The position numbers were made by a program, and so were the translations under genes. From Corallococcus sp. AB038B (GTDB taxonomy: Bacteria; Myxococcota; Myxococcia; Myxococcales; Myxococcaceae), in the NCBI RefSeq assembly GCF_003668955.1, contig NZ_RAWO01000002.1, forward strand, positions 471,605 through 535,604: a stretch of 64,000 nt of DNA, written 5' to 3'. Numbering within the stretch: position 1 is the first letter of the stretch; every line of letters begins with the position of its first letter. The notes beneath the pieces were generated by a model. It was not told where the DNA came from and did no database searches. It saw nothing but the letters and a program-made list of their open reading frames with translations. Positions 20,100 to 23,949 of the stretch are shown here, one piece after another.

Positions 20100-20849
20100 A
20101 TGGCACAGATCAAGCTTGGAGAACTGCTGATCAAGGCGAACGTCCTGCAGGAGAGCCAGCTCAAGGCGGCGCTCGCCGAGCAGGCCAAGTGGGGCGGGAA
20201 GCTGGGCGAGATCCTCGTCCGGATGAACCTCGTCTCCGAGGACATCCTCGTGCGCGCCTTGTCGAAGCAGCTGGGCATGCCGGCGGTGAACCTGGACTCC
20301 GTGCAGATGGTGCCGCCGCACGTGAAGGCCAAGATTCCGGCGCAGACGGCGCGCGACTTCTCTGTCGTCCCGCTGCAGCTGCGCGACGACGGCAAGACGC
20401 TGGTGGTCGCCATGTCGGACCCGCTCAACGTGCGGGTGCTGGACGAGCTGCGGGCCCTGTCCAAGTGCCGCATCGTGGCCAACGTGGCCGGGCGCACCTC
20501 CGTGGCGCGGGCGTTCGCGCGCCTCTACGAAGAGACGGCGGAGCTGGAGGACGCGGACACCAACTTCAAGGTGGTGGACGCGCAGGGCCGCACCGTCGTG
20601 AAGAACCTCAAGGACCTGGACCCGGCCGCCGCCGTCGCCATGTCCCCCAAGCCTGCCGCCGCGCCGCCCCCCCGTCAGGCGCCTCCGCCGGAGGCGCCTC
20701 GCGCGGCCTCCGGCAGCCCCGCGGAGCTGCTCAAGAGCGTGGAGGACGTTCAGCGCAAGGAGGTCGCGGCGCTGAAGGCCATGGTCGAGCTGCTCATCGA
20801 GAAGGGCATTTTCTCCCGCGAGGAATACCTCGCCAAGGTCAAGCGGTAG
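20100..20849 (+). CDS. MshEN / T2SS-E N-terminal domain-only protein (predicted c-di-GMP receptor), paralog 1
   Basis: N-terminus holds two tandem 24-residue motifs: KLGELLIKANVLQESQLKAALAEQ and KLGEILVRMNLVSEDILVRALSKQ. They match the MshEN c-di-GMP-binding consensus (RLGxxLLxxGLLxxxxLxxALxxQ). Followed by a GspE_N-like fold, a Pro-rich linker and a C-terminal helix. No ATPase domain. Confidence 0.8.
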   Translation: MAQIKLGELLIKANVLQESQLKAALAEQAKWGGKLGEILVRMNLVSEDILVRALSKQLGMPAVNLDSVQMVPPHVKAKIPAQTARDFSVVPLQLRDDGKTLVVAMSDPLNVRVLDELRALSKCRIVANVAGRTSVARAFARLYEETAELEDADTNFKVVDAQGRTVVKNLKDLDPAAAVAMSPKPAAAPPPRQAPPPEAPRAASGSPAELLKSVEDVQRKEVAALKAMVELLIEKGIFSREEYLAKVKR

Positions 20850-20858
20850 CCCCCGGCC

Positions 20859-21869
20859 ATGCGCAAGAAGATTGGTGAACTCCTCGTCCAGGCCGGAGTG
20901 GTGACGGACGAGCAGGTGAAGCAGGCCCTCGCGTCCGGACGGCGCGGCCAGGGCCGCAAGCTGGGTGAGGTGTTGGTGTCCATGGGCCTGTGCACGGGCC
21001 GGGACATCGCGCGGGCGCTGGCGACGCAGCACGAGCTGCCGTTCGTGGAGATCCCCGAGTACATCCCGCATGCGGTGTCCTCGCTGGTGTCCATGGACTT
21101 CCAGACCGAGCACCGGGTGCTCCTCTTCGCGGCGGAGCAGGACGGCCGCAGCGAGAAGATCCACGTCGCCGTGGAAGACCCGGGCAACCTGATGTTGGTG
21201 GACGAGCTGCGCTTCCAACTGCGCAAGCCGCTCAAGGTGTTCGTCGTAGCGCCGGACGACCTGGAGCAGGCGCTCGCGCGCGGCCGGGGTGAGCCCCTGG
21301 ACATCGTGGAGGCTGAACCGATGGACATGGACGAGGACGATTCGCCGGACATCCTGCCGCCGCCCCCTCCCGCGGCCGCGCGCCCGCCTCCGCCGCCGCG
21401 CCCACCCGCGCCGCCGACGCTGGACTGGGACCTGCCGCCGCCTCCGCCGCATGATGGCGACGCGTCCGCTGACGGCGCGGAGGTGCTGGAGGACATCCTG
21501 GGCTCCACGCCCCGTCCCAAGATCCCCAAGGCCCCGCGTCCGCCGCCGCCTCCCGCCGCCGCCCGTCCGCCGCCGCCCCCGCCTCCCGCGGAGCCGGAGG
21601 ATCCGAGCAAGCCGCGCGTGCCGGTGGTGCTCTTCGGCGGTGCCGCGCAGGGCGTGAAGCCGTCCGTGGCGCTCACGCCCAAGCCGGACTTCTCCGAGGA
21701 GGACCTGGCGGTGCTGGACGACATCGACCGCATCTCGCGCGGCGAAGAGGCCAGCCTGGACACGGAGAAGGTGAAGCCCGCGCGCATGGTCGCGAGCCTC
21801 ATCCGCCTGCTCATCCGCAAGGGGCTCATCCAGGAGGCGGAGTTCCTGGAGGAGCTGGCCCAGAAGTGA
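20859..21869 (+). CDS. MshEN / T2SS-E N-terminal domain-only protein, paralog 2, with duplicated poly-Pro linker
   Basis: Motifs [24 protein letters not shown] and [24 protein letters not shown]. Two near-identical [13 protein letters not shown](R)PP(A)P blocks. C-terminal helix [26 protein letters not shown] resembles the paralog-1 tail. Stop overlaps the oppD-like start (GTGA). Confidence 0.8.
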
Positions 21870-22897
21870 CCGGCGTCGCGCCGTCCCCCGGGGCCTCTGC
21901 CGGTGCCCCGCTCCTGGACGTGCGGGGGCTCGTCACTCAACTGTCGCTCCCGCGCGGCACGGTGCGCGCGGTGGACGGCGTGTCCTTCTCTGTCCCTCCC
22001 GGCGGCACGCTGGGAGTGGTGGGGGAGAGCGGCTGCGGCAAGAGCCTGACGGCGCTGTCGGTGATGCGGCTCGTTCCGCAGCCGCCCGGCCGTGTGGTGG
22101 GCGGCGAGGTGCGCTTCCGGGGCGAGGACCTGCTGGCCCTGCCGGAGAAGGAGATGCGGCGCGTGCGCGGCCGGCATGTGGCCATGGTCTTCCAGGAGCC
22201 CATGACGTCGCTCAACCCGGTGTTCACCGTGGGCGAGCAGATTGGCGAAGGCGTCCGGCTGCACCTGGGCGCCACCCGGGCGCAGGCGCGTGAGCGCGCG
22301 GTGGAGATGCTCCGGCAGGTGGGCATCCCGGCGCCCGGCGAGCGTGTGGATGCGTACCCGCACCAGCTCTCCGGAGGCATGCGCCAGCGCGTGATGATCG
22401 CCATGGCGCTCGCGTGCGACCCGGCGCTGCTCATCGCGGACGAGCCGACCACGGCGCTGGACGTCACCATCCAGGCCCAGATCCTGGAACTGCTCAAGCG
22501 CCTGCAAGCCGAGCGGAACATGGCGGTGATGCTCATCACCCACGATCTGGGCGTGGTGGCGGGAAGCTGCGACGCGGTGGTGGTGATGTATGCGGGCCGC
22601 ATCGTGGAGCAGGCACCGGTGCGCGAGCTGTTCGCCCGGCCCGCGCACCCGTACACGGCGGGCCTGCTGCGCTCCATCCCGTCGCTGCACGACGCGGGCG
22701 CTGCATCCGAGGGCGGGCGTCAGCGCCTGAAGGCCATTCCCGGCATGGTGCCATCGCTCACCGCGCTGCCGTCCGGGTGCGCGTTCCGGGACCGCTGCGA
22801 CCGCGCCTCGGAGCTGTGCGCCCGAGTCACGCCCGTGCTGGAGCCGAAGCGCGGAGGCCAGTCCGCCGCCTGCCATCACCCGGTGCCCGCGCCATGA
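21866..22897 (+). CDS. ABC transporter ATP-binding protein, OppD/DppD-like (oligopeptide family)
   Basis: Walker A GESGCGKS, signature LSGGMRQR, and the C-terminal oligopeptide-ABC extension (PYTAGLL..C.F..RC). GTG start overlaps the upstream stop. Confidence 0.85.
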
Positions 22898-23949
22898 GCG
22901 AACCGCTGGTCCAGGTGCGCGACCTGAAGGTGCACTTCCCGGTGAAGGGCGGCTTGTTGGGGCGCACTCGCGGCACGGTGCGCGCGGTGGACGGCGTGTC
23001 CTTCGACGTCGCCCGCGGGGAGACGCTGGGCCTGGTGGGGGAGAGTGGCTGCGGCAAGAGCACGCTGGGTCGCGCGGTGCTGCGCCTCATCGACCCGACC
23101 TCCGGCTCCATCCGCGTGGCCGGGCGCGAGCTGACCGGCCTGTCGCAGCGCGAATTGCGACCGCTGCGCCGCCAGATGCAGCTTGTCTTCCAGGACCCGT
23201 ACGCGTCGCTCAACCCGCGCATGACGGTGGGGGACATCCTCGCGGAGCCCTTCGCCATCCACGGCCTCGCGAAGGGCAAGGCTCGCGAGGACGAGGTGCT
23301 GGCGCTGCTCGACGCCATGGGGCTGCCCCGCGAGGCGCGCCAGCGCTACCCGCACGAGTTCTCCGGCGGCCAGCGTCAACGCATCGGCATTGCACGTGCC
23401 ATCGCGTTGCGTCCGGAGCTGGTGGTGGCGGACGAGCCCATCAGCGCGCTGGACGTCTCCATCCAGGCGCAGATCGTCAACCTGCTGGTGGACCTGCAAC
23501 GCGAGCGCGGGCTCACCTACGTCTTCATCGCGCACGACCTGAAGATTGTTGAGTACGTGTCCACGCGTGTGGCGGTGATGTACCTGGGCCGCATCGTGGA
23601 GGTGGCGCCGTCCCGGTCGCTGTACGCCGGACCTCGCCATCCGTACACGCAGGCGCTGCTGTCCGCGGTGCCCGTGCCGGATCCGGAGCGTCCCCCCACG
23701 CGGCTGTTGCTGCCGGGAGAGCCGCCTTCGCCCCTGTCGCCGCCGACCGGCTGCGCGTTCCATCCGCGCTGCCCGCATGTGATGGAGCGCTGCCGCCGCG
23801 AGTCACCGCCGCTGTATCCCCTGGGTGGAGGCCACGCCGCGGCTTGCTTCCTGGCCGAAGGGGATTCGCGCAACGTGCAGGACGGGCCCGCTGTTTCCAC
23901 GTCCGGAGGAGGTGCCGGTGTTCTGGCTCAGCCATCATCACCCGGATGA
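22894..23949 (+). CDS. ABC transporter ATP-binding protein, OppF/DppF-like
   Basis: The ATG at 22894 overlaps the oppD-like stop (ATGA). Walker [10 protein letters not shown], signature FSGGQRQR, C-terminal PYTQALL...C.FHPRCP. No permease or substrate-binding protein gene is adjacent. Confidence 0.85.

Follow-up and report, generated by a model that had tools for sequence, protein, structure and literature searches.

Two stand-alone MshEN proteins of Corallococcus as possible c-di-GMP sensors for the ATPase pair of an Opp-type importer operon

A 64 kb stretch of Corallococcus DNA (~70% GC), hereafter the window, contains four tightly packed plus-strand genes in which two proteins built on the cyclic di-GMP (c-di-GMP) receptor domain MshEN, here called Msh1 (249 aa, positions 20100..20849) and Msh2 (336 aa, 20859..21869), precede a pair of ATP-binding cassette (ABC) ATPases of the OppD type (343 aa, 21866..22897) and the OppF type (351 aa, 22894..23949). 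Complete oppABC genes lie just before msh1 in 16 related genomes, and the module is therefore interpreted as the operon of an Opp importer in which two MshEN genes have become inserted between the genes for the permeases and those for the ATPases. We tentatively propose, with a confidence that stays somewhat short of even, that Msh1 and Msh2 are trans-acting c-di-GMP sensors for the OppD/OppF ATPase pair of an Opp/Dpp-type peptide importer. The proposal is drawn from the predicted shared transcript and coupled translation of these genes, from a common C-terminal hairpin that both proteins carry on a flexible tether, and from the position of the msh genes between the permease and ATPase genes. 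The MshEN identity of the two proteins is already catalogued (Wang et al. 2016) and is not new; no earlier description was found of MshEN as a stand-alone protein or of its placement within an ABC importer operon.

By scanning one genome per species we collected 80 loci, all from Myxococcaceae/Archangiaceae, and mapped the window proteins onto them by tblastn; 58 loci and the window met the coverage filter. In all 58, as in the window, msh1 is followed by oppD and oppF, and the 4-nt ATGA overlap between oppD and oppF is kept in most loci. At close range the conservation extends to the nucleotide level, with ~95% identity between Corallococcus coralloides KYC2213 and the window across 17 kb around the msh-opp unit. 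In 16 deeper-branching loci, whose Msh1 is 51-69% identical to that of the window, the 4-5 kb between the DUF4292 gene and msh1 is occupied by oppA (SBP_bac_5) and by oppB and oppC (BPD_transp_1), and the distance from the oppC stop to the msh1 start ranges from -23 to +54 nt in the 15 of these loci where it was measured. The msh2-oppD intervals that are unusually long (2.5-5.5 kb) contain no permease genes and are filled by one giant msh2 gene.

In a neighbour-joining, midpoint-rooted tree of concatenated Msh1, OppD and OppF, which carries no support values, the oppABC-positive loci lie on both sides of the root and one of them is sister to a monophyletic oppABC-less crown clade, so that the oppABC-less state appears to be derived. 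The crown clade holds every cultured genus sampled (Corallococcus, Myxococcus, Pyxidicoccus, Hyalangium, Archangium, Cystobacter, Vitiosangium and Citreicoccus). The simplest reading of these sequence comparisons is that the ancestral operon was oppA-oppB-oppC-msh1-msh2-oppD-oppF-DUF2085, with a later loss or relocation of oppABC in the crown clade. A search with a deep-branching OppC gave, as its best 120 homologues, only proteins from metagenome-assembled genomes (MAGs) or metagenomes (57-100% identity), which fits the loss of the orthologue in the cultured genera and is suggestive, not proof. The same genes seem to have been lost independently in locus L056, and perhaps in L071, L075 and L076. 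Locus L056 (a MAG; 4193-6052) has msh1 and neither msh2 nor oppABC, and its msh1 stop overlaps the oppD start; msh2 thus appears dispensable in at least one lineage. The initial annotation had described an orphan ATPase pair accompanied by no permease or binding-protein gene. The second part of this description is borne out by the search for oppA, oppB and oppC homologues, which found none in the window at E 1e-5. The idea of a free-standing orphan module, however, gives way to one apparently derived by loss, given the oppABC genes upstream in 16 relatives.

Both ATPases combine ABC_tran and oligo_HPY domains and have intact Walker A, signature, Walker B and H-loop (HDL) motifs, as read from their translations, and thereby share the build and catalytic motifs of E. 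coli DppBCDF (8Z1V) and OppBCDF (8Z21) and of M. tuberculosis OppABCD (8J5Q). The best NCBIfam matches of OppD are DppD and OppD, and its closest solved structures are M. tuberculosis OppD (8J5Q) and E. coli DppD (8Z1V); OppF matches NF008453 at 411.9 bits (cut-off 408) and is closest to 8J5Q and E. coli DppF/OppF. The deep-branching relatives resemble Opp/Dpp importers in carrying the full oppABCDF set. They differ from them by the two MshEN genes between the permease and ATPase genes and by the DUF2085 gene after oppF, and the Corallococcus locus differs further by the absence of oppA, oppB and oppC from it and from the whole window.

Within the oppABC-less Corallococcus, the ratio of nonsynonymous to synonymous substitution rates (dN/dS) is 0.05-0.11 for oppD and 0.11-0.16 for oppF, as compared with 0.12-0.17 for ACAD and about 0.10 for ExbB among the housekeeping neighbours. 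These ratios indicate that oppD and oppF are not decaying and are under strong purifying selection similar to that on their neighbours. The corresponding values are 0.09-0.10 for Msh1 and 0.23-0.31 for Msh2, the latter being raised by its linker. Since oppABC are gone from the locus in the whole cultured crown clade while purifying selection still acts on msh1-msh2-oppD-oppF-DUF2085, OppD and OppF must work either with permeases whose genes lie in another part of the genome or with a new partner; a literature search for Opp permeases in Myxococcus xanthus found nothing. Each ATPase keeps four cysteines in its oligo_HPY region (window 22760-22880 and 23800-23900) that line up with the clustered Cys residues by which M. 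tuberculosis OppD (8J5Q) ligates a [4Fe-4S] cluster. A redox sensitivity of the OppD/OppF pair is possible.

The gene that follows oppF encodes a small polytopic membrane protein with a DUF2085 domain (23918..24325, plus strand; Pfam E 5e-10; orthologue MXAN_4663, 135 aa). Its probable start is the GTG at 23918, located 6 nt after GGAGGAG, which gives a 32-nt overlap with the 3' end of oppF; homology among relatives begins exactly at this position. Nearly all related loci with enough sequence have this gene immediately downstream of oppF, whether oppABC are present or not; locus L045 gave no match. The protein has four transmembrane helices and a conserved HHH...CxRCxG motif, and it could act as an accessory membrane partner of the ATPase pair.

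Msh1 and Msh2 match the Pfam MshEN model (PF05157) at 55.6 bits (E 5e-15) and 47.4 bits (E 2e-12), well above the gathering cut-off of 23.1, and the same domain is assigned to their orthologues. A Pfam scan of the two proteins found no other domain and, in particular, no T2SSE (PF00437) ATPase domain, in agreement with the MshEN-only architecture first suggested for them. Residues 5-145 of Msh1 align to the solved structures of PilF, PilB and MshE, residues 1-133 of Msh2 align to MshE (5HTL), and the PDB alignments of both end at about residue 145-177. With MshEN as the sole Pfam match and structural alignments that stop at this point, the two proteins fall outside the MshE/PilB/GspE secretion ATPase family and are, by sequence, bona fide MshEN proteins with a complete domain. 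They share with V. cholerae MshE (5HTL) and with PilB/PilF the fold of ~145 residues, composed of the four-helix MshEN_N with two 24-mers and the alpha/beta subdomain MshEN_C. Unlike these proteins, they have no fused T2SSE or type IV pilus ATPase, and carry a Pro-rich tether and a short helical hairpin instead. The two proteins are 35% identical to each other across the MshEN domain, and Msh1 is 71-99% identical across Myxococcaceae.

The c-di-GMP site of MshEN domains consists of two 24-mers of the pattern RLGxx(LVI)(LVI)xxG(LVI)(LVI)xxxxLxxxLxxQ separated by a 5-residue spacer; binding depends on L2, G3, L17, L21 and Q24 of each 24-mer, which make hydrophobic and Gln contacts with c-di-GMP, and position 1 stacks via its aliphatic side-chain atoms (Wang et al. 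2016). The 53-residue motif of Msh1 (residues 5-57; 20112..20270, plus strand) reads KLG...Q, spacer AKWGG, KLG...Q. Across 70 orthologues, neither 24-mer shows any change at L, G, L, L or Q; the first position holds K or R, and 5 residues separate the two motifs. The corresponding region of Msh2 (residues 4-57; 20868..21029, plus strand) reads KIG...G, a 6-residue spacer, KLG...Q; its second motif is complete in the window protein. Among 55 Msh2 orthologues, the two Gly residues and the Gln of motif 2 never change, and motif 1 ends in Gln in 31/55, in Lys or Arg in 18/55, and in Gly only in Corallococcus, including the window.

Both proteins match the NCBIfam model NF053729 ('c-di-GMP_motif') over positions 1-53 of 53, at 64.6 bits for Msh1 and 62.4 bits for Msh2 (cut-off 38). 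As a control, the model was run on the N-termini of proteins with reported behaviour, using sequences from the supplement of Wang et al. (2016). V. cholerae MshE, a binder, scored 85.2 bits and M. xanthus PilB, which counts here as neither binder nor non-binder, 61.6 bits, while the non-binder XpsE scored 16.7 bits and the PilB proteins of P. aeruginosa and V. cholerae, both non-binders, were unmatched. In the same run Msh1 and Msh2 scored 68.1 and 61.3 bits. The model separates binders from non-binders in this control, and Msh1 and Msh2 fall on the predicted binder side.

Beyond the MshEN domain, Msh1 continues into a low-complexity Pro/Ala-rich tether (residues ~146-206; 20535..20717, plus strand), which is poorly conserved and in the AF2 model has a predicted local distance difference test score (pLDDT) below 50 and no secondary structure. 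It ends in a C-terminal helical hairpin (VQRKEVAALKAMVELLIEKGIFSREEYLAKVKR; 20718..20846, plus strand) that is near-invariant in 70 orthologues, with predicted helices at 207-234 and 240-248 and a terminus reading ...ALKAMVELLIEKGIFSREEYLAKVKR. The AF2 model was built from 36 close homologues and has a pLDDT of 53; only its secondary structure was used. Msh2 has a Pro-rich repetitive linker (21306..21728, plus strand) with 31% Pro and imperfect direct repeats 183 nt apart in the DNA, followed by its own C-terminal helical hairpin (21756..21866, plus strand). The C-terminal profiles of the two proteins match by hhalign with a probability of 94% and an E of 1e-7 over 25 columns. Both shared features claimed at the outset, a Pro-rich linker and a conserved C-terminal helix, are thus present in both proteins, the helix having the shape of a helical hairpin.

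Searches of Pfam with the hairpin gave no match. Those of the PDB, with the single sequence and with a profile, gave nothing significant, the hits being chance ankyrin-like hairpins, and an identification as a SHOCT domain is likewise unsupported. The hairpin weakly resembles a 24-mer MshEN half-motif lacking the RLG. A TonB-like role for these Pro-rich proteins near exbBD was considered and rejected, as they have no transmembrane helix, no TonB C-domain and no Pfam match to one. Msh2 orthologues vary from 292 to 1835 aa, and the linker is the part that expands in relatives. In L075 (8748-14261) and L076, both MAGs, and in L061, L066, L067 and L077, Msh2 is 765-1835 aa long and contains an acidic Ala/Glu/Pro/Ser-rich disordered region, which reaches about 1600 residues in the largest forms; at the C-terminus of the 1835-aa form the hairpin motif is repeated in tandem, with three copies (LLLEKGAITSDDL, LLLNQKLIGPEDL and LLLIEKGVFDCSS).

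According to the proposed mechanism, Msh1 and Msh2 would be two paralogous stand-alone c-di-GMP receptors. The N-terminal four-helix bundle of each would bind one c-di-GMP, and the C-terminal hairpin may dock the sensor onto the partner paralogue or onto one nucleotide-binding subunit; a pair of sensors would match the pair of ATPase subunits well. Binding of c-di-GMP would then alter the ATPase activity and hence peptide import, as a trans version of the action that fused MshEN domains have in the MshE/PilB ATPases and in the NfrB glycosyltransferase. E. coli NfrB, a c-di-GMP-activated glycosyltransferase, illustrates the use of MshEN as a portable input for unrelated enzymes, and an ABC transporter is absent from the partners among the MshEN architectures listed by Wang et al. 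(2016). The best NCBIfam matches of the Msh proteins include NfrB-type models, although the NfrB sensor acts in cis and Msh1 and Msh2 are separate polypeptides. In contrast to MshE, which belongs to the pilus and secretion systems, they are encoded in an ABC-importer operon, and position 1 of their motifs is Lys.

Among ABC importers, regulation at the ATPase is exemplified by MalK with EIIAGlc, by the C2 domain of MetN and by the c-di-AMP-binding CBS domain of OpuCA. The proposed system would be like these in logic only, in that a cytoplasmic signal would gate an importer via its nucleotide-binding subunits. The known cases use ATPase-fused domains or a global regulator protein, and to our knowledge none involves c-di-GMP, MshEN or dedicated operon-encoded sensor proteins. 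If correct, the proposal would provide a first example of an ABC importer that c-di-GMP regulates via sensors acting in trans. MshEN is among the most widespread c-di-GMP receptor domains and is understood only as a cis-fused regulator of pilus and secretion ATPases and a few other enzymes. M. xanthus has 17-22 MshEN proteins, with a known role for PilB only, and the place of the msh genes between permease and ATPase genes suggests for this orphan class a specific target that can be put to the test. The retention of the sensor-ATPase core beside the Kil predation locus in all cultured Myxococcaceae also raises the question of what role an ABC ATPase pair has without its transporter, in bacteria that live on prey peptides.

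Several points weigh against the sensor proposal. The literature search returned no binding, interaction or transport data for Msh1, Msh2 or their orthologues. The membrane parts of the importer are absent from the window, and a local 'peptide import' output requires permeases elsewhere. By gene order, control of OppDF cannot be told apart from control of the sigma/anti-sigma pair or the Kil system described below, the tree is a neighbour-joining one with a midpoint root and no support values, and the AF2 model of Msh1 is of low confidence (pLDDT 53). The motifs themselves depart from the canonical pattern: Lys replaces Arg at position 1 of each motif in both proteins, Msh1 has Asn for the turn Gly (position 10), which is outside Wang's relaxed [GAS] and occurs also in M. 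xanthus PilB, and Corallococcus Msh2 has the 6-residue spacer and a Gly for the motif-1 Gln. The two tandem 24-mers quoted in the initial annotation are present, with the canonical spacer in Msh1, and their fit to the consensus holds only in part. The same is true of the alignment of binding residues to MshE, where L, G, L, L and Q are kept in Msh1 and the motif-1 Gln of Msh2 is replaced in Corallococcus.

These four non-canonical Lys residues, the Asn of Msh1 and the altered first motif of Msh2, together with the loss of binding in many MshEN domains (Wang et al. 2016), could also mean that the domains no longer bind c-di-GMP and that Msh1 and Msh2 are ligand-independent adaptors or scaffolds, for example assembly factors of the ATPase dimer. 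We consider this unlikely. None of 70 Msh1 sequences departs from the hydrophobic and Gln contact residues, and both proteins stand on the binder side of a hidden Markov model that rejects three known non-binders. Moreover, the KLG-type middle domain of D. geothermalis PilB, with Lys at position 1, binds c-di-GMP with a dissociation constant of 13.5 nM, so that Lys at this position is compatible with tight binding, and charge substitutions at Arg9 and Gln32 of MshE shift the affinity less than fivefold (Wang et al. 2016).

The gene junctions point to tight coupling of msh1, msh2, oppD and oppF. The msh1-msh2 gap is 9 nt, the msh2 stop overlaps the GTG start of oppD (aaGTGAcc), and the oppD stop overlaps the ATG start of oppF (ccATGAgc), both overlaps being as initially read. 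The GC content at third codon positions is 0.91-0.94 in all four genes, as expected of real genes in a 70% GC genome. A promoter and terminator scan of 17.8-27.1 kb of the window gave results at chance level, and in Corallococcus co-transcription is judged from the gene overlaps and the 9-nt spacing. Downstream of DUF2085 lie an extracytoplasmic function (ECF) sigma factor gene (24357..25037, plus strand; Sigma70_r2 and r4_2; orthologue MXAN_4662) and a zf-HC2 anti-sigma factor gene (25034..26470, plus strand; orthologue MXAN_4661), which overlap by 4 nt.

The M. xanthus orthologues run from MXAN_4667 (Msh1), MXAN_4666 (Msh2), MXAN_4665 (OppD) and MXAN_4664 (OppF) through MXAN_4661, and MXAN_4667, 4666, 4665, 4664, 4663, 4662 and 4661 form the predicted 'Operon 24' (Kuzmich et al. 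2022, Table S2). The four-gene operon first suggested is thus supported in its msh1-msh2-oppD-oppF coupling and is too short in its gene count, as DUF2085 overlaps oppF as a fifth gene and the predicted M. xanthus operon has seven. Cappable-seq placed a transcription start site (TSS) 5 nt upstream of MXAN_4667 in growing cells and an internal TSS at -66 of the sigma gene MXAN_4662 at all time points, with no other internal TSS before MXAN_4662; both msh genes are expressed in growth and fall slightly in development (log2 fold change -0.4 to -0.8) (Kuzmich et al. 2022). Wang et al. (2016) include MXAN_4666 and MXAN_4667 in their MshEN alignments and, in one column with known binders, in their Supplementary Table 3; both are also among the 17 MshEN genes of the M. 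xanthus c-di-GMP gene set (Kuzmich et al. 2022). The literature search found no main text that discusses MXAN_4664-4667, no link between MshEN and a peptide ABC transporter and no published function for a module of such composition, consistent with the earlier impression that none has been characterised.

The same operon structure leaves room for Msh1 and Msh2 to be c-di-GMP inputs to the ECF sigma/anti-sigma pair, and thereby to expression of the Kil region II genes that follow, with OppDF merely co-transcribed. The sigma and anti-sigma genes belong to the same predicted operon in M. xanthus, and all loci with sufficient downstream sequence have the pair after the unit. Kil genes lie directly after the anti-sigma gene in the window and in M. 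xanthus, and CpaB is within reach in several deep-branching loci. A precedent is provided by RsiG-sigma-WhiG of Streptomyces, where c-di-GMP controls an anti-sigma factor. We nevertheless regard this explanation as quite unlikely. A constitutive start site inside the operon serves the sigma gene separately, the position between the permease and ATPase genes of the full operons is an odd one for a sigma-factor regulator, and loci of Archangium, Cystobacter and Vitiosangium have 0.5-4.7 kb of other sequence between DUF2085 and the sigma gene, whereas no lineage examined shows an opening at the msh-oppDF junctions. It is this last contrast that leads us to rank the ATPase pair as the primary partner of Msh1 and Msh2.

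Downstream of the anti-sigma gene, the window contains a Flp-like open reading frame (ORF), CpaB/RcpC, two TadB/C-type genes and two FHA proteins, which correspond to Kil region II, so that the unit does sit just upstream of a Tad-like locus, as originally described. In M. xanthus this region spans MXAN_4648-4661, with the anti-sigma gene MXAN_4661 at its boundary. The adjacency is conserved from the deep-branching loci to Corallococcus and Myxococcus, and MshEN in characterised systems is the N-domain of the ATPases of type IV pili and type II secretion. Msh1 and Msh2 might accordingly serve the Kil (Tad-like) machine in trans, by supplying the N-domain that Tad ATPases lack, or the permease-less OppDF might have been recruited as a regulatory or energising ATPase for the envelope machinery. 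The persistence of oppDF under purifying selection without local permeases fits the latter version, and an Opp-family ATPase, SapD, is known to moonlight on the Trk K+ uptake system in E. coli. We judge both versions very unlikely: the gene for KilF, the Kil ATPase, belongs to the other Kil cluster (MXAN_3102-3108), the Kil papers that were checked mention neither c-di-GMP nor these genes, and the ancestral context appears to be a complete peptide importer, so that a role in Kil would have to be secondary. As for the suggestion of a regulatory or energising unit for the neighbouring envelope machinery, its genomic basis, the conserved adjacency to the Kil locus, stands, and no functional link beyond adjacency was found.

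A more radical version holds that the msh1-msh2-oppD-oppF-DUF2085 unit of the crown clade transports nothing and would be a c-di-GMP-gated ATPase switch on the Kil killing apparatus, acting via DUF2085 and/or the sigma/anti-sigma pair. We give such a switch only a slim chance; if real, it would link the second-messenger state to predation.

The composition of Kil region II differs between the two genera. The Flp-like ORF of the window (26489-26791, plus strand; 100 aa), which lies between the anti-sigma gene and CpaB, has no Pfam match and contains a Flp-type prepilin motif (G/QAMVEY, then a hydrophobic stretch). M. xanthus has three minor-pilin genes (TadE, Tad, TadE) at the same place, directly after MXAN_4661, and the region is therefore organised differently in Corallococcus. 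An 866-aa minus-strand ORF after the Myxococcus anti-sigma gene proved spurious, the called genes there being the Kil minor pilins. The two FHA proteins of the window follow the TadB/C genes (29744-34600, plus strand); one has 1026 aa with a long low-complexity region, and the other has 582 aa with FHA and TPR domains. Next come xseA and xseB, which makes the window cluster a short one of about six genes, as compared with the 14 ORFs described for M. xanthus.

On the upstream side, the initial annotation had placed the unit between ExbB/ExbD and the sigma/anti-sigma pair. Both flanks are as stated, with two additional genes inside them, DUF2085 before sigma and a DUF4292/LolB1-like lipoprotein gene (19210..20040, plus strand; Pfam E 5e-16) between exbB and msh1. 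The latter matches NF053559 (LolB1, a model of the Bacteroidota outer-membrane lipoprotein insertase) at 50.2 bits (cut-off 50). This gene opens the same-strand array, a position in which it is conserved, and is followed immediately by oppA in the deep-branching loci. The exbB-exbD genes (17965-19167, minus strand) have no adjacent tonB and are divergent from the DUF4292-msh-opp array; this arrangement is kept in nearly all related loci, and exbD-exbB together with DUF4292 are found upstream of the unit in most. Eight genes upstream of msh1 lies a gene for a REC and HD-GYP (Pfam HD_5) protein of 373 aa (12297-13418, minus strand), a predicted c-di-GMP phosphodiesterase. Gene order and length identify it as the orthologue of MXAN_4675 (372 aa), and the neighbourhood is kept in M. 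xanthus; a predicted c-di-GMP-degrading enzyme is thus encoded near the two putative receptors. Farther upstream, a MoxR-type AAA ATPase and DUF58/VWA pair (6798-9055, minus strand) adjoins an SNF2-family helicase (3835-6741), and these genes appear unrelated to the msh-opp unit.

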